Below are positions 34,312 to 61,269 of a DNA stretch of 64,000 nucleotides, one piece after another. Below the pieces are notes generated by a model. That model worked only from the letters and a program-made list of their open reading frames with translations, did not search any database and had not been told where the DNA came from. The stretch is from the IMG/VR virus record IMGVR_UViG_2693429713_000009, one strand, 5' to 3'. This DNA comes from a virus (lineage: Duplodnaviria; Heunggongvirae; Uroviricota; Caudoviricetes). How positions within the stretch are numbered: the stretch's first letter is position 1; every line of letters starts with the position of its first letter. The position numbers were made by a program, and so were the translations under genes.

Positions 34312-35973
34312 TTAACCTAACTTCGCCCAGGTATCACGCAGCCCAACGGTGCGGTTAAATACCGGTTTTTCCGCCGTAGAATGGCGGCTGTCGAGGCAGA
34401 AATAACCTTCACGCTCAAACTGGAATGCTTTACCCGCTACCGCTTCTTTCAGCGACGGTTCAGCAAAACCCTGTTTGATCACCAGCGATTCCGGGTTAAT
34501 CACCGACAGGAAATCATCCGCAGCACCTGGGTTCGGCACGCTGAACAGACGATCGTACAGGCGGATTTCAACCGGCAGCGCATGTGCCGCGCTCACCCAG
34601 TGAATAACGCCTTTCACTTTACGACCATCTGCCGGATCTTTGCTTAAGGTGTCGGCGTCATAAGTACAGAAGATGGTGGTGATATTGCCTTCGGCATCTT
34701 TCTCCACGCGTTCAGCCTTAATGACGTAAGCATTACGCAGACGCACTTCTTTACCCAGCACCAGACGTTTGTACTGCTTGTTAGCTTCTTCGCGGAAATC
34801 GGCGCGGTCGATCCAAATCTCACCGCTAAACGGCACCTGACGGCTACCCATTTCCGGTTTGTTTGGATGGTTCGGCATGGTGACCATTTCGCCTTCGCCC
34901 TGGTAGTTTTCGATAACCAGTTTCACCGGATCGATAACCGCCATTGCGCGCGGCGCATTTTCGTTGAGATCTTCACGGATGCAGGATTCCAGCGACGCCA
35001 TCTCAATGGTGTTGTCCTGCTTGGTCACGCCGATGCGTTTGCAGAACTCACGAATAGAAGCCGCAGTGTAACCACGACGACGCAGACCGGAAATGGTCGG
35101 CATACGCGGGTCATCCCAGCCTTCAACGTGCTTGTCGGTCACCAGCAGGTTCAGCTTACGCTTGGACATCACAGTGTATTCCAGATTCAGGCGCGAGAAT
35201 TCGTACTGGCGCGGGTGAACAGGAATGGTGATGTTGTCCAGTACCCAGTCATACAGACGACGGTTGTCCTGGAACTCAAGCGTACACAGAGAGTGCGTAA
35301 TACCTTCCAGCGCATCGCTGATGCAGTGGGTGAAGTCGTACATCGGGTAGATGCACCACTTATTGCCAGTCTGGTGGTGTTCAGCAAACTTAATGCGGTA
35401 CAGCACCGGGTCGCGCATCACGATAAACGGCGAAACCATGTCGATTTTCGCACGCAGGCAGGCTTTACCTTCTTCAAAACCACCGGCACGCATTTTTTCG
35501 AACAGCGCCAGGTTCTCTTCAACGCTGCGGTCGCGGTACGGGCTGTTTTTACCCGGCTGCGTCAGGGTGCCGCGGTATTCGCGGATCTGTTCCGGCGTCA
35601 GTTCGTCAACATACGCCAGGCCTTTGTTGATCAGTTCAACAGCATAGGCATGGAGTTTGTCAAAATAATCGGAGGAGTAACGGATGTTGCCAGACCAGTG
35701 AAAACCTAACCATTCAACGTCGTTTTTAATCGACTCGACGTACTCGATATCTTCTTTTACCGGGTTAGTGTCGTCGAAACGCAGGTTGCACTGGCCTTTA
35801 TAGTCCTGGGCGATCCCGAAGTTCAGGCAGATAGATTTCGCATGACCAATATGCAGATAGCCATTCGGTTCCGGCGGGAAACGGGTATGTACTGTGGTGT
35901 GCTTACCACTGGCCAGATCTTCATTGATGATCTGACGAATAAAGTTAGTCGGGCGGGCTTCTGCCTCACTCAT
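34312..35973 (-). CDS. glnS: glutaminyl-tRNA synthetase, host (enterobacterial) type
   Basis: 553 aa; class I HIGH motif ([11 protein letters not shown]), VMSKRK; N-terminus [16 protein letters not shown]… recognised as E. coli/Salmonella-type GlnS. Confidence 0.9.
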
Positions 35974-36163
35974 TGTGGATTCCTCAAAGCGTAAACAACG
36001 TATAACAGCGTATGATCTTATAAGCCGAATAGGCTGACAACCACTAGTTGATTAGAAATTGCTTTCTATCGTTATTTCAATAATGAGCTTTTTCATGAAG
36101 CCCACTTTTGCGCATAAGTAAATTAATGACAAATGGTACACAATTGGAACCAAAAAGGATGTA

Positions 36164-36200
36164 AAGGTGCACCAAATTAGTGGTGTATTGGTGCACCTTT
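36164..36200. repeat. perfect 13-bp inverted repeat AAAGGTGCACCAA…TTGGTGCACCTTT
   Basis: Downstream of the par operon, near the right edge of the glnS insertion; word AAAAGGATGTAAA precedes it and recurs at 40134. Confidence 0.5.
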
Positions 36201-36241
36201 GGTTCAAGACTTTTTAAGTTCTAAAACCAACCTGAAAGACT

Positions 36242-36529
36242 TTATTTTGCTTCCTCAGACTCCGCTAACATGAGGATAGCATGGCGGATCATATTCAATT
36301 TGCTGCGATTATGCTTTTTACTTAACGCATCAAGTACTTGGTACTCGTATTCATTGAAACCAACACGAATAGATTTAAAATCACGTGGAGCGTCCTTATC
36401 GAGCACTTTGTTGTCTTCTGGTTGCTCACCCGGCACCAAATCAGCCTTACTGGCAAAATCCTCAATTCGGCGTTCAAGATCGGGGTCTTTTACTTCGGGG
36501 GCTTTTACCGATTTACGAGGCTTAATCAC
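36242..36529 (-). CDS. ParG-like ribbon-helix-helix centromere-binding protein
   Basis: 95 aa; immediately downstream of and overlapping the parA-type ATPase gene; basic N-terminus and RHH-like C-terminus. Confidence 0.5.
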   Translation of the reverse strand: MIKPRKSVKAPEVKDPDLERRIEDFASKADLVPGEQPEDNKVLDKDAPRDFKSIRVGFNEYEYQVLDALSKKHNRSKLNMIRHAILMLAESEEAK

Positions 36530-37163
36530 TTAATAACTCCTTAACCAACATCTGGATTTCACCTTTAGCTTTCCCGTTGTCCATCTCAACAACGCCCTTC
36601 CCTTCAGCCATGCAATCGCGGTAAACCTTACGATCACGAATGATGGTTTTCAGCAACTTCAGTTGCGGATATTCAGCCAGGTACTCTTTGGCCTCATTGG
36701 TTTCATTCACAACCGGATTGGATGGGGCCATTGTTAAGACTGCGAACGCCTTAATGCTAGGATTAGGCATCAGGTCCAAAGCCTCTTCAAACACTTCAAC
36801 AAAGTGTGCCAGCGTGTCTAAATCTGGTTGAGATGGTCTGAATGGGACCAACACAATATCTGCAGCGGTTATGCCTGTACGCATCTCTTTGCTATCGCGC
36901 CCGGCTGTATCAACAACTACAAATTCATAACGCTTATCCAGATCGAGAAGTGTTTCTCGAATATTACCAAACTTCTGGACACAATGAATTACAGGAGAAA
37001 CCTCTGCCGTGTTACGGTCAGCTGCCCAGCGGGCAGCTGTTCCTTGCTTGTCTGCATCTAGTAACACTACATCCTTATTTGCGCGGGCAAGCTCCGCACA
37101 GATGTTTACGCTTGTGGTTGATTTTCCACAGCCACCTTTTTGGCTGACTACCAATATAATCAT
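36522..37163 (-). CDS. parA: ParA/ParF-type partition ATPase (type Ib)
   Basis: 213 aa from ATG 37163; deviant Walker A KGGCGKST; GAGGAA SD. Confidence 0.75.
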   Translation of the reverse strand: MIILVVSQKGGCGKSTTSVNICAELARANKDVVLLDADKQGTAARWAADRNTAEVSPVIHCVQKFGNIRETLLDLDKRYEFVVVDTAGRDSKEMRTGITAADIVLVPFRPSQPDLDTLAHFVEVFEEALDLMPNPSIKAFAVLTMAPSNPVVNETNEAKEYLAEYPQLKLLKTIIRDRKVYRDCMAEGKGVVEMDNGKAKGEIQMLVKELLSD

Positions 37164-37450
37164 ATCCGTTCCTCGGTGTGATTTTGGTATCAAAACGGTT
37201 CCAGATAAGAGCCTTTTTGATGCGGGACAGGCTCTATAATGGAGTCATTAATGTTTGGCAAAGTATAACATCAATCAGACCAAATACACCTTATATTGCA
37301 TCCTATTTAACACGAAATCAGCCCAAAATTGGAACCAGATACAAAATAACTCCATAGCAGCACCTAAGTGGTACCAAATTAACACCAATTAGACACCATT
37401 AAGGCATAAAAAAGGCTGCAATTTGCAGCCTTAAACCAGCACATCTTCTG

Positions 37451-37795
37451 TCAATCAGGTAGAGAGTCAGCTAGATTGCGCGCCGACGCGCTTTTGGCAA
37501 CAAATTGCTCCTTCACTGGCTCAATGGAGGCAGGGCGCTCCTCAACCGCAGCTGGTAGTTCCAGGAAGGATGCCAGCATTTTTCGGATCAGCTCCGGGTT
37601 ATTGTCTTCGGTCAGCAGGGAAGCCAGTAATCCTGGAAGCCTGCTATCGACTTCTCCCAGCGCAAGCCCTGCCAACAATGCAGTTCTTGCCATATCGCTA
37701 TGTTTTTTTATCTTCTCGCTCGCCGCCTTTTCATTGGCATAAGCCTCTGGGCGAAGATAAATCATCACTTTCTTACGTTCCTGAGACATGGACAT
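37451..37795 (-). CDS. parR: ParR-like centromere-binding protein (type II partition)
   Basis: 114 aa; RTALLAGLAL block resembles R1 ParR; directly downstream of parM. Confidence 0.55.
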   Translation of the reverse strand: MSMSQERKKVMIYLRPEAYANEKAASEKIKKHSDMARTALLAGLALGEVDSRLPGLLASLLTEDNNPELIRKMLASFLELPAAVEERPASIEPVKEQFVAKSASARNLADSLPD

Positions 37796-37801
37796 ACCTC
37801 G

Positions 37802-38758
37802 TTAACCGATTGCTTTCAGGCCATGAACAAGAGCAAGTTGCGGGTCATCCGCCACGAAGAAACGGTCATCACGAATATTAACTTGCTCGCGAATTGCATC
37901 TGCCACCAGCGGTGCGCCACCACCGATCACCATGACATGCGTATATCCTTTAAAGTCGCCAATCACATCAAGAACGCGGGTACGCAGACGGTCAATGCTT
38001 GCGGCAATGGCCTTTTTCACATCACCAATCGCTGATGGGTCATTGATATTGTCGTTCAGATAATCTTCATCGTGGCGGTTAATAATGAGCTGATCAACAT
38101 TGTAATTTGACGTTTCGGTATTGGCCCTTGCAAGTGCTTGCCTTACTTCCCTGGTGACCAGTGATACACCAAGATTCGAATCGCCAAAAACACGGGAAAC
38201 TGCCGTCATTTGTCCAGCGACCATTGAAACATCAAGGGTAGTTCCACCCAAATCGACGATAAGAACAGAGTGGGCAGGGTTCAGATTGTCGCACAGGCTA
38301 ATTCCCGCCGGGATAGACTCCGGGCGTACCGTAACTTTCTTAATAGTGAATACATTGCCTTTATTCAGCGTGACGGGGCGCATAAGACTGGCTTTCTTGC
38401 GCTCGATGTTATCGAGATTGTATTGCGCGTCGTCGTCGTAAAACTCTGCCAGAGGCAGCGTGACCACAATTTCTACTTCCTGCGGCTCAATACCGCTTGT
38501 CAGCAGGGCATGGTGAACAGCCAGGACGTTAAGCGGGCTGTATTGCCATTCCACATTATTCGTCGGCAGAACATCTGGCGATATCAAGTCGTATGAATAC
38601 TTTTCGTCGTCAATGACATAGTTAAACGGCTTGCCCGCACCAAATGTTGCTGACCATCCGCGCTTAAAGCTGTTAGGGCTGATGTGAGTGCGAGTTTCCC
38701 CGTCGTGCTCCCACAGCATTTTGATATTGGTTGAACCATCATCGATAAAAATGCGCAT
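37802..38758 (-). CDS. parM: ParM/StbA actin-like partition ATPase (type II)
   Basis: 318 aa from ATG 38758; MRIFIDDGSTNIK…, AVHHALLTSG, DLGGTTLD, HVMVIGGGA alignable with R1 ParM. Confidence 0.8.
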   Translation of the reverse strand: MRIFIDDGSTNIKMLWEHDGETRTHISPNSFKRGWSATFGAGKPFNYVIDDEKYSYDLISPDVLPTNNVEWQYSPLNVLAVHHALLTSGIEPQEVEIVVTLPLAEFYDDDAQYNLDNIERKKASLMRPVTLNKGNVFTIKKVTVRPESIPAGISLCDNLNPAHSVLIVDLGGTTLDVSMVAGQMTAVSRVFGDSNLGVSLVTREVRQALARANTETSNYNVDQLIINRHDEDYLNDNINDPSAIGDVKKAIAASIDRLRTRVLDVIGDFKGYTHVMVIGGGAPLVADAIREQVNIRDDRFFVADDPQLALVHGLKAIG

Positions 38759-38783
38759 CTTCTTGCTCCACTTCTGAGACACA

Positions 38784-38940
38784 TTTGAGAATTAAAATGT
38801 AATTTTAAAAGAGAAGCACCCAAAAATCCACACCAAACGAGATAAAAAAGAGCGCTTGTTGAGTTTATTTTGAGAATATCTTAATCACCCACTGAATGAT
38901 GGTCTGATAGTGAGATTTATTTGAGAATGAATTGAGAATA
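38784..38940. repeat. parC-like centromere/promoter repeats (TTTGAGAAT iterated)
   Basis: Copies at about 38784, 38868, 38920 and 38932 upstream of parM. Confidence 0.4.
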
Positions 38941-39024
38941 CAAAAATATTCCGAAATTTAACTCTCCGTTTGAATGACGAAATAACAAAGTGATGACAAT
39001 AGGAGGATAACCAGGAGGTGAAGA

Positions 39025-39309
39025 ATGAGCGCAATAGCCACCAGCGACACCCTTTGTTCTGGTCACGGAGGATTTCCGCCGCGACTGGTAGCAGAAACCG
39101 TTCCCTGGTTCACCGTTAACGGTAAGCCAGTTGTTGTAGATGGTGCCATGTTTCCCAGTCACACTGACGGTAACAGTGCACATCCAGGGGCAGCTGTATC
39201 GACGCGAGTATGGTTTTCGATAGGTGGAAAGGGAGTTGTCTGTGTAGGCGATCCGCTTTCTTGTGGTTCTGTTATCGCCAACGGCGAGGATATTTTTCAG
39301 GTTGCATAA
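39025..39309 (+). CDS. PAAR-like small protein (possible spike-tip protein)
   Basis: 94 aa; …CSGHGG…VNGKPVVVDGA…SIGGKGVVCVGDPLSCGSV… resembles PAAR repeats; AGGAGG SD. Confidence 0.35.
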   Translation: MSAIATSDTLCSGHGGFPPRLVAETVPWFTVNGKPVVVDGAMFPSHTDGNSAHPGAAVSTRVWFSIGGKGVVCVGDPLSCGSVIANGEDIFQVA

Positions 39310-40115
39310 TGCTTGATTCAATAGGTGAAGTTAAAGCCTTCAAAATTCTGTCAGATGCCGGTATCTCTACACCAGAATCTATAACCATAAGCCGGGCAGC
39401 TTCTGTAAAAGCCTCATCACTCGCCAGCGCCATACAGGGAATAGTTCACGCCGATAAAACCTATCCTGATTCTGTTTCGGCCTGGACTACTCAATTGCTT
39501 GGCTTTTCTGAACAGCTCAATGAGGCCAGCAAAGCGTCTTCATTACTGGCTGATTCTCTTTCCCCATACACCAAGCCATCAGAGCTGTTACAGATGAAGA
39601 TTGGCTGGGAATGCTACGCAAAAGGTAACGAACTGACCCCCATACCTGCTTTCGCCCTTGTTGAGGGAATGGGGAATGTTTCCATTCCGCAATCTCTAAC
39701 GGACGCATTGACGGCGCTAAAACTTGATGCTCTGAAAACCGCCATGAACGCCATTAACGCAAAAATTGAAGCTGCCGGAAGTGCTGGTGGTGGTGAAAGC
39801 AATGGTGGACAGGGTGGTGCTGGGGGCGCTCAGGCTCCAGTCATTACTCAGGATGAAATTGATGCTTTACGGGAAGCAGTGACAGCCGCCGAAGTTTTAC
39901 TCTCCGAAATTAACTCAGCAAGTGAGGGTGTCGTAGCCCTTACAGGTCGCATTAAAACGTCAACCACTCAGGCAACCAAAGGTTTAGAGAACGCTGTCGC
40001 CATCACGTTAACTGGTTCTCTACTGGATGATGCAGTAATGAGTCCGGCAATCAGTTTAATCATGCCACAAGGCGTTATCGATGCGCTCCAAAAGAACACC
40101 AAAAAGGAACCATAG
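39309..40115 (+). CDS. hypothetical protein (Ala/Ser/Thr-rich with Gly-rich linker)
   Basis: 268 aa from ATG 39309 (TAATG overlap with PAAR-like gene). Confidence 0.5.
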   Translation: MLDSIGEVKAFKILSDAGISTPESITISRAASVKASSLASAIQGIVHADKTYPDSVSAWTTQLLGFSEQLNEASKASSLLADSLSPYTKPSELLQMKIGWECYAKGNELTPIPAFALVEGMGNVSIPQSLTDALTALKLDALKTAMNAINAKIEAAGSAGGGESNGGQGGAGGAQAPVITQDEIDALREAVTAAEVLLSEINSASEGVVALTGRIKTSTTQATKGLENAVAITLTGSLLDDAVMSPAISLIMPQGVIDALQKNTKKEP

Positions 40116-40170
40116 AAACACCACTTAGGCACACAAAAGGATGTAAATTGGTACATGTTTAACACCAAAA

Positions 40171-40644
40171 ATGAACCTGAAGAGGATGGTTTTGAAAAAG
40201 ATAATTTTGATTGTTATTGCGCTTTTAGCCATTTCTGGAATTTACCGAACAACAACGGCAGTTATCGAACACATCAGGTATGTCCGATCGCTTGAAGACT
40301 CAAAATCACAACTGGAAAGCACGAACAACACGCTTTCTACCGCATTACAGTTAAGTGAGAACGCTCGCTCAGCCATGCTGACCGAAAACGAAAGAATTAA
40401 AGCACTGGAAAAGGAGTACCAGCGCAAAACAGCAGAACTGAATGCCAACCTAATCAAACAACGAGAGGAAAGCCAGAATGAAATCACTCGCCTTGAAAAT
40501 GCGTTACGCCGTGCTGGGATTAACGATGTGCGTGTGCCTGATGACGTTATCAGGATGCAGCGGGAACGGGCAAAAGCCATCAACCAGCGTGCCAGTGAAA
40601 ATTACCGTAGAAGCCACCAGCAAGCCGCAGGCAAATCTGATTGA
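40171..40644 (+). CDS. Rz-like inner-membrane spanin candidate
   Basis: 157 aa; N-terminal TM helix (KIILIVIALLAISGIY) then coiled coil; a lipoprotein ORF is nested in the +1 frame. Confidence 0.5.
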   Translation: MNLKRMVLKKIILIVIALLAISGIYRTTTAVIEHIRYVRSLEDSKSQLESTNNTLSTALQLSENARSAMLTENERIKALEKEYQRKTAELNANLIKQREESQNEITRLENALRRAGINDVRVPDDVIRMQRERAKAINQRASENYRRSHQQAAGKSD

Positions 40645-40810
40645 TTACTCCCCTTGTTTAGTGCCAGAGGACACGCCAGTGCTGTTAAACAAGTATCCGA
40701 CATACGCTGAACAGTTATTCAGCACGATCGACGAATGCAACCAACGAAACGCACTGAATAACCAAAGAAACAGGGAGATTTGGGAAGGGAAGGGGGATCA
40801 AGGCTCCTGA
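40478..40810 (+). CDS. Rz1-like outer-membrane lipoprotein spanin candidate (overlapped architecture)
   Basis: 110 aa in alternate frame starting inside the Rz-like gene; signal peptide with lipobox LSGC; Pro-containing mature part. Confidence 0.45.
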   Translation: MKSLALKMRYAVLGLTMCVCLMTLSGCSGNGQKPSTSVPVKITVEATSKPQANLIDYSPCLVPEDTPVLLNKYPTYAEQLFSTIDECNQRNALNNQRNREIWEGKGDQGS

Positions 40811-49013: not shown

Positions 49014-49305
49014 GAGGGCATTTTTTACATCATCAATTCATCTGTAATGAAGGCATTCTTTACACATTTCAATAATATCAATCAGTTAACACAGTGAATG
49101 ATAATAAAAAAGCGCAATAAGAATGCACGATACGCACGATATTGGTTGAGGGTGATTTTTACATAATCCTTACATATCAATACGTTATATAAAAACACAA
49201 CTTGCTAATAACAAGATACATGCAATTAAGATGTAAAAATTGCCCTCAATTGCCGATCGTTAAGGGCAAATTCTACACCTTGAGAAGGGTGTAAAAATTG
49301 CCCTT
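49014..49305. repeat. iteron cluster downstream of repA (incA-like copy-control locus), about 5 copies in both orientations
   Basis: GAGGGCATTTTTTACATC (49014), GAGGGTGATTTTTACAT (49148), inverted copy (49229-49246), AAGGGCAAATTCTACACC (49262), inverted copy (49288-49305). Confidence 0.6.
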
Positions 49306-50059
49306 AAGACTGCTGATAGGTAAATTTTATCCTGGTAACTTTTCCGCCTTCCGTCACCTCTGAGAAGACTATTTTCATTTTTGTATTTTTTTCAATCTCT
49401 GCTACAGCCTTCGTTAAAAAACTTCTCTTAAATTCGGCATACCGCTGATAGCTTTTTGGTAACCCATAACGCTCCCGCATCCATTCGACGCCAAGTATGG
49501 CAAAGCCGCTTCCATCATCCTTCCTGTACTGGCATAAGGACTCATAAAGCCGCATAGAATAAGGATTTGTAAGGCGAGATACTTCGGTAAAATTCAGCCT
49601 CGTGAATCTCTTATCAAGCAGAGTAAAAAACGGCATGAGATATGGATTAAGATGAATAATGTAAGTCCCGCGCCGTGGTGAATAGGCATCCTTAATCATC
49701 CAAGGATAAGACTCATAACTGTCTTCTGATTCGGTCGATTCATCAGGGTTATATATCGTAACTTTCTTCTCGCTAAGCCCTGAAATGGCCTTACGAATAT
49801 CCTTGCTGGCTTCAGCAGAGGGCAAATTATACATCTCTGCATATTCGTTGACCGTCAACTCACAGGCACCTGAACCAAGAACGCCATCCTTAGAAGCATA
49901 GCGAAGTCTTCCCACCACAATAAACAACAGTCGCTTTTGGTCGCGAGTCAGGTGATAAGCAGCCTCCGTGATCTCATTGGCTTGTGCCAAACTACGACTA
50001 ATAGGTGTCGCTGACTCAATCAGGCTGACGGCTTTTGCTGTTAATTCCGCTCTGTTCAT
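49304..50059 (-). CDS. repA: iteron-binding plasmid replication initiator (RepA-like)
   Basis: 251 aa from ATG 50059 (ORF track extends to TTG 50092); flanked on both sides by 18-19-bp iterons. Confidence 0.6.
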   Translation of the reverse strand: MNRAELTAKAVSLIESATPISRSLAQANEITEAAYHLTRDQKRLLFIVVGRLRYASKDGVLGSGACELTVNEYAEMYNLPSAEASKDIRKAISGLSEKKVTIYNPDESTESEDSYESYPWMIKDAYSPRRGTYIIHLNPYLMPFFTLLDKRFTRLNFTEVSRLTNPYSMRLYESLCQYRKDDGSGFAILGVEWMRERYGLPKSYQRYAEFKRSFLTKAVAEIEKNTKMKIVFSEVTEGGKVTRIKFTYQQS

Positions 50060-50084
50060 AACCCTGTGTGATCCTTCGAATGGT

Positions 50085-50201
50085 GAGGGCAATTTTTACA
50101 TCACTTTGAGGGCAATTACTACACCTTTTGAGGGCAAATCTTACACCTTTTGAGGGCAAATCTTACACCGATCGTATTTAATTGAGGGCAATTCTTACAC
50201 C
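50085..50201 (+). repeat. origin iterons: five direct repeats GAGGGCAA(A/T)T(C/T)TTACACC at 22-23 bp spacing
   Basis: Copies at 50085, 50108, 50130, 50152, 50184, immediately upstream of repA; one more inverted copy at 50324-50341. Confidence 0.7.
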
Positions 50202-50297
50202 AGCCTCCTCTACAGCCCGCGCCACTACTGGCTCCAGCGACGCCTAAAAAGGATCTAAAAAGGATTAAAAATGGAAAAAGGTTTATAAAAATACTCT

Positions 50298-58270: not shown

Positions 58271-61269
58271 TTATGGGGGCTGATAAAACGAACAACATAA
58301 TGACACTATCCTCTGGTGTCTCACAGCCGTTGCTTGCTGATGTTCAATATTTCGAACTCTATAGTAGTTCGGCTCTTAACAGAAAACTTAAAAATATTGT
58401 TTTGCCTGGCTTTTACTGTGGATTTGAACCAGTTCCCGGCACAGGGTTGAGTGTTCGTATAACTTCTGAAAACTCAGAAGGTAAAGGGGCTGCTTCAGTA
58501 GATGTAAATAATGTTCAGATATCCGTTCAGCAAATAGAAGATGTGACTGTCTCGGTAAAGGCTGGGGCTACCAACATTATTGTGCTGGAAGCCAATTTTG
58601 AACATGGTGTAAAAACGACACAGGTAGATAGCGCATCTTCTGTCAGTGCTGCAAGAATTTACGTGCGTACGGACAATACTATTGGGCAGAATCAAATTGA
58701 ATTATGTCGAGTTATCGTGCCTAACGGCGCAACGGCTGTGACTAAAGAAATGATTGTGCTTAAATACCGGGTTAACCGTGCTGTTGGTGTCGAATTTTCT
58801 AATGAAATAAGCAGTACAGAAGAAAGAAAAGCGGCTACACCTCTGGCTGTCAAAACTCTCCATGATTTGGTTGATACAAAAGCTCCGCTCGATAGTCCGC
58901 ATCTGTCAGGTACGCCGACTTCGCCTACACCTGAACCCGGTACAAACAACACACAGATCGCAAATGCGGCCTTTGTCTATGCTGCTATAAATGCGCTTAT
59001 CAATGGTGCTCCGGGAACGATGGACACGCTGAAAGAAATAGCGGCTGCGATCAATAACGACCCGAATTTCAGCACAACTATCAACAATGCCCTGGCTCTT
59101 AAAGCTCCTTTGGCAAGCCCGGCATTCACAGGTACGCCGACAGCACCTACGGCCTCACAAGGCACAAATAGCACGCAGATTGCAAATACAGCCTTTGTTA
59201 AGGCAGCTATAACGGCACTTATCAACGGTGCACCTGGCACATTGGATACGCTGAAAGAAATAGCGGCTGCGATCAATAATGACCCGAATTTCAGCACAAC
59301 TATCAACAATGCCTTGGCTCTCAAAGCGCCTTTGGCAAGCCCTGCATTAACGGGTGTCCCTACTGCGCCGACCGCCGCACAGGGCACAAATAATACGCAG
59401 ATAGCTACGACCGCTTATGTAAGAGCTGCCATATCCGCATTGGTTGGTTCATCACCAGAAGCTCTTGATACCCTGAATGAGCTTGCCGCAGCACTTGGCA
59501 ATGACCCGAACTTTGCGACAACAATGACAAATGCGCTGGCAGGCAAACAGCCTCTGGATGCAACTTTAACCGCGTTTGCTGCCCTTGCGACTGGTGCAAA
59601 CAAACTGCCTTATTTCACCGGTAAGGATACGGTAGCGCAGACTGATTTAACGTCAGTCGGTCGCGATATTCTGGCTAAAACAAGCACACTGGCCGTTATC
59701 CAATACCTTGGTTTAAGAGAACTCGGAACAAGCGGTGAAAAGATCCCCCTGTTGAGCACGGCTAACACATGGAGTGCACGCCAGACTTTCAACGGCGGGA
59801 TCACCGGGGCGCTGACAGGGAATGCCGACACCGCGACGAAATTGAAAACAGCCATAAACATTAATGGCGTCAGGTTCGATGGTTCTACGAACATTTCGAT
59901 ACCAACAATTACGTCTAGAGGACGCGTTACTGCGCTTACCGGTACAACGCAAGGTGCTGCTACTGGATTGCAGATGTATGAGGCATACAACAATGGTTAT
60001 CCAACGACTTACGGGAATGTACTTCACCTAAAGGGAGCAGCATCCACTGGTGAAGGTGAGTTGCTCATTGGCTGGAGTGGCACAAATGGCGCTCATGCAC
60101 CTGCTTTCATTCGATCCAAAAGAGATAGCACTGCTGCGGCATGGTCCGAATGGGCACAGATCTATACGTCAAAAGATTCAGTTCCCGGCGTCAATGCTAA
60201 AGGGAATCAGGACACCTCTGGTAATGCGGCTACAGCGACCAAATTGCAGATAGCACGTACCATTAACGGTGTCTCGTTTGATGGTTCTAAAAATATTGAG
60301 TTAACGGCGGAAGATTTAAATCTTGAGCAAACTGTAGAATTAGCCGCAGGGGCATTACAGAAAAACCAGAACGGCGCAGATATTCCAGGAAAAGATACTT
60401 TCACAAAAAATATTGGTGCATGTCGCGCTTTTCACGGTGCTATTAGTACAGGTGCAGGGAACTGGACAACAGCACAATTGATTGAATGGCTGGATTCTCA
60501 AGGGGCATTCAATCACCCATACTGGATGTGCAAATGTTCATGGTCATACGGCAATAATAAAATTATTACCGATACTGGCTGTGGAACTATTCATCTTGCA
60601 GGTTGCGTTATTGAGGTTATGGGTAATAAAGGTGCCATGACCATCCGTGTAACAACACCAAGCACTTCCACCGGAGGCGGCACCACTAACGCTCAATTCA
60701 CTTATATTAATCATGGTGATGCTTATGCTCCTGGCTGGCGAAGAGACTACAACACGAAAAACCAGCAGCCTGCATTTGCTTTAGGGCAAACAGGAAGCAG
60801 GGTTGCAAATGATAAAGCTGTTGGCTGGAACTGGAATAGCGGCGTTTATGATGCAGATATCAGTGGCGCATCGACATTAATCCTCCACTTTAATATGAAT
60901 GCGGGGAGTTGCCCTGCTGTACAGTTCCGCGTGAATTATAAAAACGGCGGTATCTTTTATCGTTCAGCGCGTGATGGTTATGGCTTTGAAGCTAACTGGT
61001 CAGAGTTTTACACCACAACCCGCAAACCCTCTGCGGGGGATGTTGGTGCATATACGCAGGCAGAATGTAACTCAAGGTTTATTACAGGTATTCGCCTGGG
61101 CGGTCTGTCATCTGTTCAGACATGGAATGGTCCCGGCTGGTCTGACAGGTCAGGTTATGTCGTTACAGGTTCAGTTAACGGAAACCGTGATGAATTAATT
61201 GATACAACACAGGCAAGGCCAATTCAGTATTGCATTAATGGAACGTGGTATAACGCGGGGAGTATTTAA
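58267..61269 (+). CDS. tail fibre protein S (constant N-terminal part plus variable C-terminal part Sv)
   Basis: 1000 aa; three 74-aa tandem repeats; gix-like site in frame at 59696-59721; segment after it is homologous to inverted Sv' at window end. Confidence 0.75.
58879..59544 (+). repeat. three tandem 222-bp (74-aa) repeats inside the tail-fibre gene
   Basis: Repeated coding blocks …[15 protein letters not shown]…[49 protein letters not shown]…. Confidence 0.7.
59696..59721. other. gix/cix-like DNA-invertase crossover site
   Basis: TTATCCAATACCTTGGTTTAAGAGAA: 26 bp with imperfect dyad (TTATCCAATACC / GGTTTAAGAGAA) closely resembling Gin/Cin/Hin sites as recalled. Confidence 0.55.
59931..60405. 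repeat. left arm of inverted repeat; right arm is 63525-64000 on the opposite strand
   Basis: 59931-59980 is identical to the reverse complement of 63951-64000; encoded proteins stay alignable for about 150 aa. Confidence 0.7.

Follow-up and report, generated by a model that had tools for sequence, protein, structure and literature searches.

A double partition locus of types Ib and II in a D6-like phage-plasmid, with candidate 11-bp-phased iteron arrays of the type Ib cassette

The window considered here, a 64,000-nt stretch of viral DNA (IMG/VR record IMGVR_UViG_2693429713_000009; Caudoviricetes), can be assigned by its sequence to a D6-like, P1-related phage-plasmid, i.e., a plasmid prophage. 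Between positions 36100 and 40170, it carries two complete partition (par) systems, one of type Ib and one of type II, side by side and co-directional. The short words that recur around the two systems are units of a degenerate iteron (~RnACCAAAnnn), one per helical turn, in three arrays. The initial annotation of this DNA described these words as shared sequence flanking both systems. Instead, we consider it highly likely that the double par locus consists of two independent co-directional cassettes and that the words are units of the arrays of the type Ib system. We will use the terms arrays A, B, and C for these arrays, and small ParB for the candidate partner of the type Ib ParA (Table 1).

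The 4.2-kb par region is 99.1% identical to that of Escherichia phage D6 (MF356679, 55698-59898) and 100% identical to that of the E. coli plasmid CP088573.1. It matches 123 PLSDB plasmids from Escherichia, Salmonella, Shigella, and Klebsiella, nearly all of which are typed as non-mobilizable. The par content of related phage-plasmids, which the initial annotation had suggested comparing, is uniform in this respect, with the double locus found in essentially all of the ~120 D6-like records. All four par genes are encoded on the minus strand, and their reading frames are intact both in the window and in D6. A frameshift turning one of the systems into a pseudogene had been named as a possible objection, and none is present in the four par genes of the window. 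In the D6 record, orf58 is annotated as StbA type, orf59 as StbB type, orf60 as “possible ParA partitioning function”, and orf61 as hypothetical. The partition functions named for D6-like plasmids are “cop, parA, stbB and parM”, with “cop” used for one gene of this locus (PMC6799933). The addiction modules phd-doc and higBA are also reported there for these plasmids. Given these annotations and this list, the finding at the level of the genes is already in the databases. The comparisons below make use of the whole 93.7-kb genome, consisting of the window and the remaining 29.7 kb (L011), and of the lineages L002 (CP042620.1), L012 (CP104667.1), and L003, as well as of the Serratia locus L004.

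Table 1. Features of the double par locus, in order of position in the window
Feature	Position	Strand	Remarks
Array A	36129-36209		~7 units, core RnACC, both orientations, directly 3' of the small parB-like gene
Hairpin within array A	36163-36200	-	13-nt perfect arms, 12-nt loop, ACAUCCUUUUU next on the minus strand
Small centromere-binding protein candidate (D6 orf61), 95 aa	36242-36529	-	overlaps the parA stop by 8 nt
Type Ib ParA (D6 orf60), 213 aa	36522-37163	-	starts MIILVVSQKGGCGKST; Pfam CbiA, AAA_31, VirC1
Array B, proximal	37176-37223		units in the parA 5' leader, between the -10 and the start codon
Candidate extended -10 of the parA promoter	37262-37271	-	TGTTATACT, read from sequence
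Array B, distal	37286-37411		~11 phased units upstream of the putative parA promoter
Intrinsic terminator of the parM-parR unit	37412-37432	-	9-bp stem, 5 GC pairs, T-tail
ParR (D6 orf59, StbB type)	37451-37795	-	PF10784 E 3e-11; pB171 ParR 2jd3 E 1e-6
ParM actin-like ATPase (D6 orf58, StbA type)	37802-38758	-	PF06406 E 9e-70, PF21523 E 3e-55
Putative parC of the type II system	38775-38942		seven 11-bp iterons, plus-strand core TGAGAAT, divergent parM/upfC-like promoter region
Array C	40085-40172		~8-9 phased units; overlaps the 3' end of the upfB-like gene (its last 9 codons) and occupies the whole interval up to the spanin-like gene

The unit of the arrays is approximately RnACC followed by an A-rich spacer, and when the regions are printed in an 11-nt register, the plus-strand consensus is TTGGnACCAAA. 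The words picked out in the initial annotation fall within this pattern, although not always where they had been placed. The 13-mer AAAAGGATGTAAA is present at 36153 in array A as reported, its second copy starts at 40135 in array C and not at 40134, and it occurs nowhere else. Among the AATTGG(T/A)ACC-like words, AATTGGAACC is found at 36142 and 37327, ATTGGTAC at 40147, and GGTACC at 37370. Nothing of the kind is located at 37347, and two of the four positions given for these words deviate by 6-20 nt. The shared 13-mer has been considered as a meaningful signature and rejected, since a 64-kb sequence should contain ~30 exact 13-mer pairs by chance alone and the word is absent from array C of L012; it is the phased cores that matter instead.

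The phasing and the uniqueness of the arrays have been established by three kinds of search. A position weight matrix (PWM) was built solely from Aeromonas and Serratia repeats, with no sequence from the window, and was applied to both strands combined at a 99.9th-percentile threshold. Only arrays A, B, and C reach five sites per 110-nt segment, the next best segment having three, and none of 200 shuffles reaches five. An earlier scan by strand at a threshold of 6.5 had given four matches per array against a null maximum of five, an ambiguity that the combined-strand scan resolved. Five PWM sites with scores of 8.4-12.7 bits lie in array C, the sites of distal array B at 37360-37393 score 8-11.7 bits, and proximal array B has sites at 37180(-), 37187(+), 37191(-), and 37213(-). 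In a motif-blind lag-11 autocorrelation of the 93.7-kb genome, array B ranks first (40/66, ~6 standard deviations above the mean) and array A joint second (34/66), with array C and parC sharing the fifth place behind two unrelated segments. Three ACCA words at 11-bp spacing, with at most one mismatch, occur six times against 0.21 expected, and all but one of these matches are in the three arrays. No fourth array has been found anywhere in the 93.7-kb genome, including the 29.7 kb outside the window. The objection that the repeated words could be common throughout the genome does not hold, given that the three arrays are the only ones there.

The type II cassette has cis sites of its own. The initial call of an R1-like parM-parR pair is well founded, with R1 ParM and the ParM of the window aligning over residues 1-318 against 1-319 (E 1e-111, 377 bits) and parR located downstream of parM. 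The parC-like repeats proposed upstream of parM are also present. They form three clusters of 2, 2, and 3 iterons (38775-38795, 38860-38880, and 38911-38942), in which TTTGAGAAT occurs at 38784, 38869, and 38920, and TTGAGAAT at 38932. The pattern TGAGAAT-N4-TGAGAAT has four matches with at most two mismatches, all within 38775-38939; at three mismatches there are ten matches against eight expected, which is not above chance, so only the matches with at most two mismatches are informative. The position of parC suggests that it overlaps the parM promoter. In L012, ParR is 61% identical to ParR of the window, and the iteron core there is GTCTC(T/A). ParR has its own iterons, and their core shifts together with the ParR allele. 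The terminator of the parM-parR unit is kept in L002, L003, and L012.

Two PWM matches within parC, at 38816 (GCACCCAAAAA) and 38830 (ACACCAAACGA), have been considered as sites for pB171-like cross-talk with the small ParB. They are located in the region 38816-38840, between iteron clusters, have no counterpart in L002 or L012, and compare with ~0.5 matches expected by chance. The candidate sites were rejected on these grounds, and the RnACC-like units are probably chance matches. On the other side of parC, at 39025-40115 (+), are genes for a PAAR-domain upfC-like protein of 94 aa and for an upfB-like protein 27% identical to P1 UpfB. These genes are divergent from parM, so the parC region is their upstream sequence as well.

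The assignment of the arrays to the type Ib cassette is based on other plasmids. Operons homologous to that of ParA and its partner have been inspected in Serratia ureilytica, the Enterobacteriaceae isolate Kacie_13, Aeromonas caviae, A. salmonicida, and Arsenophonus, and none of them has parMR nearby. The loci of Serratia, Kacie_13, and A. caviae show nnACCA units at ~11-bp spacing on both sides of the operon, and the Arsenophonus plasmid has a few such units on each side. In A. salmonicida, clear units are restricted to the upstream side, as a Tn3 transposase gene begins 164 nt after the operon. Across the homologous loci, the downstream side often has a hairpin in or after the array, and upstream the array often extends to the start codon. 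Iteron units are likewise found at the equivalent leader position in L002, L012, and Serratia L004. In Acinetobacter pACICU1, the partner is ~36% identical (tblastn), its predicted DNA-reading beta-strand is KTHTIPMN, compared with KSIRVGFN here, and the flanking repeats are AACTAAT instead of nnACCA.

The presence of like arrays beside homologous operons that lack parMR, together with the separate iterons of ParR, argues that the arrays are part of the type Ib cassette. All three can be read as its cis sites, and not as shared sequence or scars flanking both systems. The possibility that they are ParR sites has been rejected, since other plasmids have the arrays but no parMR, and since the iterons of ParR are distinct and vary along with it. 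The suggestion that the words are centromere sites is plausible. Arrays both upstream and downstream are typical of type Ib systems such as those of pESBL, pB171, and pSM19035 (PMC7602700).

The type Ib ParA has a deviant Walker A motif, KGGCGKST, at residues 9-16 and no N-terminal DNA-binding extension. Its match to TP228 ParF covers the full length of the protein (4dzz, 5u1g; E 1e-18). The gene pair called in the initial annotation as a type Ib parA with a ribbon-helix-helix (RHH) partner is present and intact, and a tblastn search with the small partner shows the pair to be kept in 176 plasmid records from several genera. The RHH label of the partner is plausible. The partner has no match in Pfam, NCBIfam, or PDB sequence or profile searches, and Foldseek found nothing with its AlphaFold2 (AF2) monomer model. 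Weak RHH_1 matches are seen in 3 of 11 partner homologs, with a best E of 0.002. The AF2 monomer, which is of low confidence (predicted local distance difference test, pLDDT, 59), shows a helix at 16-28, a disordered linker, an extended segment, and helices at 60-73 and 76-94. A comparable layout has been described for ParG, omega, and pCXC100 ParB, where the ribbon forms only in the dimer (PMC3074162). These observations are consistent with an RHH fold, which the small partner probably has. In the alignment of the partner and its homologs, K3 and R5 in the basic N-terminal tail are invariant and one helix is conserved, and by analogy with ParG, this tail and helix are candidates for the stimulation of ParA.

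The parA start is separated from the parR stop by a gap of 287 nt, in which a candidate extended -10 points to a parA promoter. A simple promoter scan did not call this element. The string GTTATACTT of the -10 is kept in L002, L003, and L012 even though its flanks are only 46-78% identical. At the other end of the operon, the sequence in array A that had been reported as a perfect palindrome has perfect 13-nt arms (36163-36175 and 36188-36200), but the 12-nt spacer between them is not palindromic. The hairpin is built of two inverted iteron units, folds with -31 kcal/mol (z -3.2), and probably terminates the parA-parB operon.

Strong purifying selection acts on both ATPases, and neither of the systems has become a pseudogene. 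The ratio of nonsynonymous to synonymous substitution rates (dN/dS) for parA is 0.03 at a dS of 1.2 against CP042620.1. Against CP104667.1, dN/dS is 0.014 at saturated dS for parM and 0.10 for the small parB. The two cassettes differ in their relationships to the neighbouring lineages. In the comparison with CP042620.1, the type Ib block including arrays A and B is 46-92% identical and parMR is 94-100% identical, with a sharp mosaic break at the parR terminator (~37430). In the comparison with CP104667.1, the parA-parB coding block is ~100% identical, and parR, parC, and upfB are strongly diverged, as is parM at the DNA level. The replacement spans are 36230-37430 against L002 and 37170-40000 against L012, and the breakpoints at ~36230 and ~37170, at the ends of the parA-parB coding block, are also sharp. 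Three of the four possible allele combinations of the two cassettes have been seen. Each cassette has thus been replaced independently among D6-like elements, which would fit a diversification of partition specificity. The initial proposal of incompatibility escape gains partial and indirect support from the same pattern.

Two of the related records show irregularities. In CP042620.1 (3050-5440), the parM, upfC-like, and upfB-like open reading frames (ORFs) are each broken, and since three neighbouring genes are affected, the breaks are probably assembly errors. The record NZ_CP031917.1 has 7 nt fewer in this region and no AAA ATPase listed, so its parA may be a pseudogene. Next to array A in the window is a full-length gene for glutaminyl-tRNA synthetase (34312-35973, minus strand; D6 orf62) with all three GlnRS Pfam domains. 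This gene is missing at this position in L002, L003, and L012, where other genes follow the downstream array.

By analogy with the R1, pB171, TP228, pSM19035, and pESBL paradigms, a working model can be proposed for the two cassettes. In the type II unit, transcription would proceed from parC through parM and parR to the terminator. ParR, as in R1 and pB171, would coat the 11-bp iterons and repress the promoter, and the ParR/parC complex would cap ParM-ATP filaments that push sister plasmids apart. The type Ib unit would start at the array B/extended -10 promoter and continue through parA and the translationally coupled small parB to the hairpin terminator of array A. We infer that the small ParB is the protein that binds the arrays and that it acts in both regulation and segregation. 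It may bind cooperatively, with one dimer per 11-bp unit and the dimers on one face of the helix, while its basic tail (K3, R5) stimulates nucleoid-bound ParA-ATP, leading to equipositioning over the nucleoid. Array B could double as an autoregulatory operator of the parA promoter. Arrays A and C may be extra centromere or pairing sites, comparable to parC2 of pB171 and parS1-3 of pSM19035.

Array C is read here as a third binding array, which could be either a centromere/pairing site or a regulatory site. It occurs in D6, L002, L003, and L012, and the three-array layout is kept in the last three of these. A distance of 2.7 kb, occupied by parMRC and two phage genes, separates it from array B. 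Immediately to its right are two overlapping spanin-like genes (40171-40810, plus strand). The first (40171-40644) encodes a membrane-anchored coiled-coil protein, and the second (40478-40810) a lipoprotein with an LSGC lipobox and a weak match to the T7 o-spanin family.

Several points weigh against our reading of the type Ib system and its arrays. Array C is apart from the cassette and is partly coding, and it could be an operator or terminator for phage genes or a decaying remnant. The core positions of array C vary less than the spacers (8/45 compared with 22/54, Fisher p 0.011), but this test is based on five sequences and mainly on one divergent lineage. ParA matches NCBIfam NF041546 (“ParA family partition ATPase”) with an E of 8.5e-48, but its 162.6 bits falls below the curated cutoff of 180. 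In addition, the RHH fold of the 95-aa partner is a candidate assignment, with a monomer model of low confidence and with the Pfam, PDB, and Foldseek searches empty. A related alternative is that arrays A and B alone are the cis sites of the type Ib system, while array C is an operator or roadblock at which the small ParB represses neighbouring phage genes in the prophage state, and is not a centromere. This is suggested by the end of array C, 0-20 nt before a spanin-like ORF (40171/40192) and overlapping the upfB-like stop, and by its conservation between the window and L002 (92-96%), which is higher than that of the adjacent upfB-like coding sequence (82-89%). In pSM19035, omega is a global repressor. 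A second function as repressor is also described for other type Ib RHH proteins (PMC7602700). On the other hand, no sigma-70-like promoter has been called in or beside array C, and its unit composition and phasing are indistinguishable from those of arrays A and B. A regulatory array C is also disfavoured by the expectation that P1-like phages express their spanin genes late, under the control of Lpa, and we regard a purely regulatory role as rather unlikely. Equally tentative is the idea that the three dispersed arrays, bracketing ParMRC and two phage genes, form one looped or paired partition complex that also controls the spanin-like operon, while in parallel the par cassettes are shuffled independently among co-circulating D6-like elements to escape partition incompatibility.

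The words could also be functionless today, either as recombination scars or homogenised sequence from an insertion of parMRC-upfC-upfB into an ancestral array, or as remnants of a cointegrate. The bracketing of parMRC and the two phage genes by arrays B and C would agree with such an origin, as would the exact 13-mer common to arrays A and C and the lineage mosaic breakpoints at the array edges (~36230, 37170, and 37430). However, the same repeats are present beside homologous ParA/ParB operons in unrelated plasmids without parMR, and chance alone accounts for many exact 13-mer pairs in a sequence of 64 kb. In L012, the sequence of array C has drifted and has lost the 13-mer, yet the 11-bp-phased cores stay, and the lower variation of the cores than of the spacers also speaks against scars. 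The cointegrate ancestry proposed in the initial annotation has found no evidence, and the double locus in essentially all D6-like records gives no sign of a recent cointegrate. We therefore consider functionless scars very improbable. It is also unlikely, although less so, that a single system effectively carries out segregation in E. coli, the other being redundant or inactive there and kept only by linkage. There is a precedent in SCP1, in which only parABS1 matters under laboratory conditions (PMC13245405), and the possible lesions in CP031917.1 and CP042620.1 point in the same direction. The low dN/dS of parA and parM at high or saturating dS, the intactness of both cassettes in the window and D6, each with a cognate iteron array, and the resemblance of the CP042620.1 breaks in three adjacent genes to assembly errors all argue against this possibility.

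Dual partition systems, which the initial annotation called uncommon, are in fact frequent. Among the PLSDB plasmids in which a par system can be recognised, approximately 19% have more than one, and the combination of a type I system with an RHH ParB and a type II system is found in 971 accessions, according to a 2026 survey (PMC13245405). The window shows the same pairing as pB171, in which par1 is a type II parMRC and par2 is a type Ib parA-parB with parC1 and parC2, adjacent on one replicon. The ParR proteins are homologous, and the type Ib part of pB171 has arrays on both sides, as here. pB171 is the textbook double par locus. Its par operons are reportedly divergent and share parC1, with regulatory cross-talk. 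By comparison, the cassettes here are co-directional with a terminator between them, and each has its own cis sites. A third array 2.7 kb away and a phage-plasmid as the host replicon also set the window apart. pB171-type plasmids have not been recognised among the tblastn matches of the small ParB, as judged by host genus only.

Each of the two cassettes also has counterparts elsewhere. The R1 parC consists of two blocks of five iterons, compared with seven iterons in a 2+2+3 arrangement here. R1 ParMRC shares with the window the gene order, with parR downstream, and the 11-bp iterons upstream of parM in the promoter region; the iteron sequence differs, and ParR here is nearer to the pB171/StbB type. 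For the type Ib cassette, the TP228 ParF-ParG-parH system is similar in that the ParA proteins match over their full length. The parH site of TP228 has short tetramer boxes, compared with 11-bp-phased RnACC units here, and TP228 has one upstream site while the window has three arrays. ParG is likewise small, and its disordered tail at the N-terminus and strand-helix-helix pattern at the C-terminus (architecture from PMC3074162) resemble the low-confidence model of the partner here, but it has no detectable sequence similarity to the 95-aa protein. The delta-omega system of pSM19035, also type Ib, has a small RHH-type protein and three separate short-repeat arrays in promoter regions that are both centromere and operator (PMC7602700). 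However, its units are 7-bp heptads and not 11-bp units, the proteins are unrelated in sequence, and the host is Gram-positive. The ParAB-parS system of pESBL (IncI) is likewise of type Ib, with a ParB of ~100 aa that belongs to no recognisable family, but its unit is the octamer GATAACAA and there is no adjacent type II system.

The ParABS system of phage P1 (type Ia) does the same job in a related phage-plasmid, and its par module is also near upfB/upfC-type genes. In the P1 gene order, par lies near these genes, and rep and par are adjacent. P1 differs in having a large helix-turn-helix ParB, a parS with integration host factor (IHF), and a single system beside repA, while the D6-like elements have type Ib and type II systems and a Rep3 origin ~10 kb away. 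The window encodes a Rep3-family initiator at 49304-50092 on the minus strand (PF01051 and PF21205). Upstream of it are five 22-bp iterons TGAGGGCAAATCTTACACCTTT (50084-50205), followed by three AAAAAGGAT units (50244-50271). The Rep3 gene and these iterons (49304-50271) are the probable plasmid origin, ~10 kb from the par module.

The double locus is real, intact, and of a known type, and it leaves the current understanding of partition mechanisms unchanged. With the D6 genome paper (Gilcrease & Casjens) standing outside the comparison, three aspects appear to be undescribed, namely the family of 11-bp-phased RnACC iterons, the conservation of a third array, and the modular swapping of alleles. 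The ParF-like ParA, the ~90-aa partner, and the 11-bp-phased RnACC iterons define an unnamed type Ib subfamily found in plasmids of Enterobacterales and Aeromonas. Plasmid prophages of the D6-like group occur widely in E. coli, Salmonella, and Shigella, and two intact par systems under selection help to explain their stable carriage. The modular allele swapping may serve as a natural example of how partition specificity diversifies, and the mapped candidate centromeres are targets for curing, incompatibility typing, and vector design. Elsewhere in the window, a 222-bp tandem repeat has been observed at 58942-59402, with 2.1 copies of 83% identity, within a large ORF region, presumably that of a tail-fibre gene.

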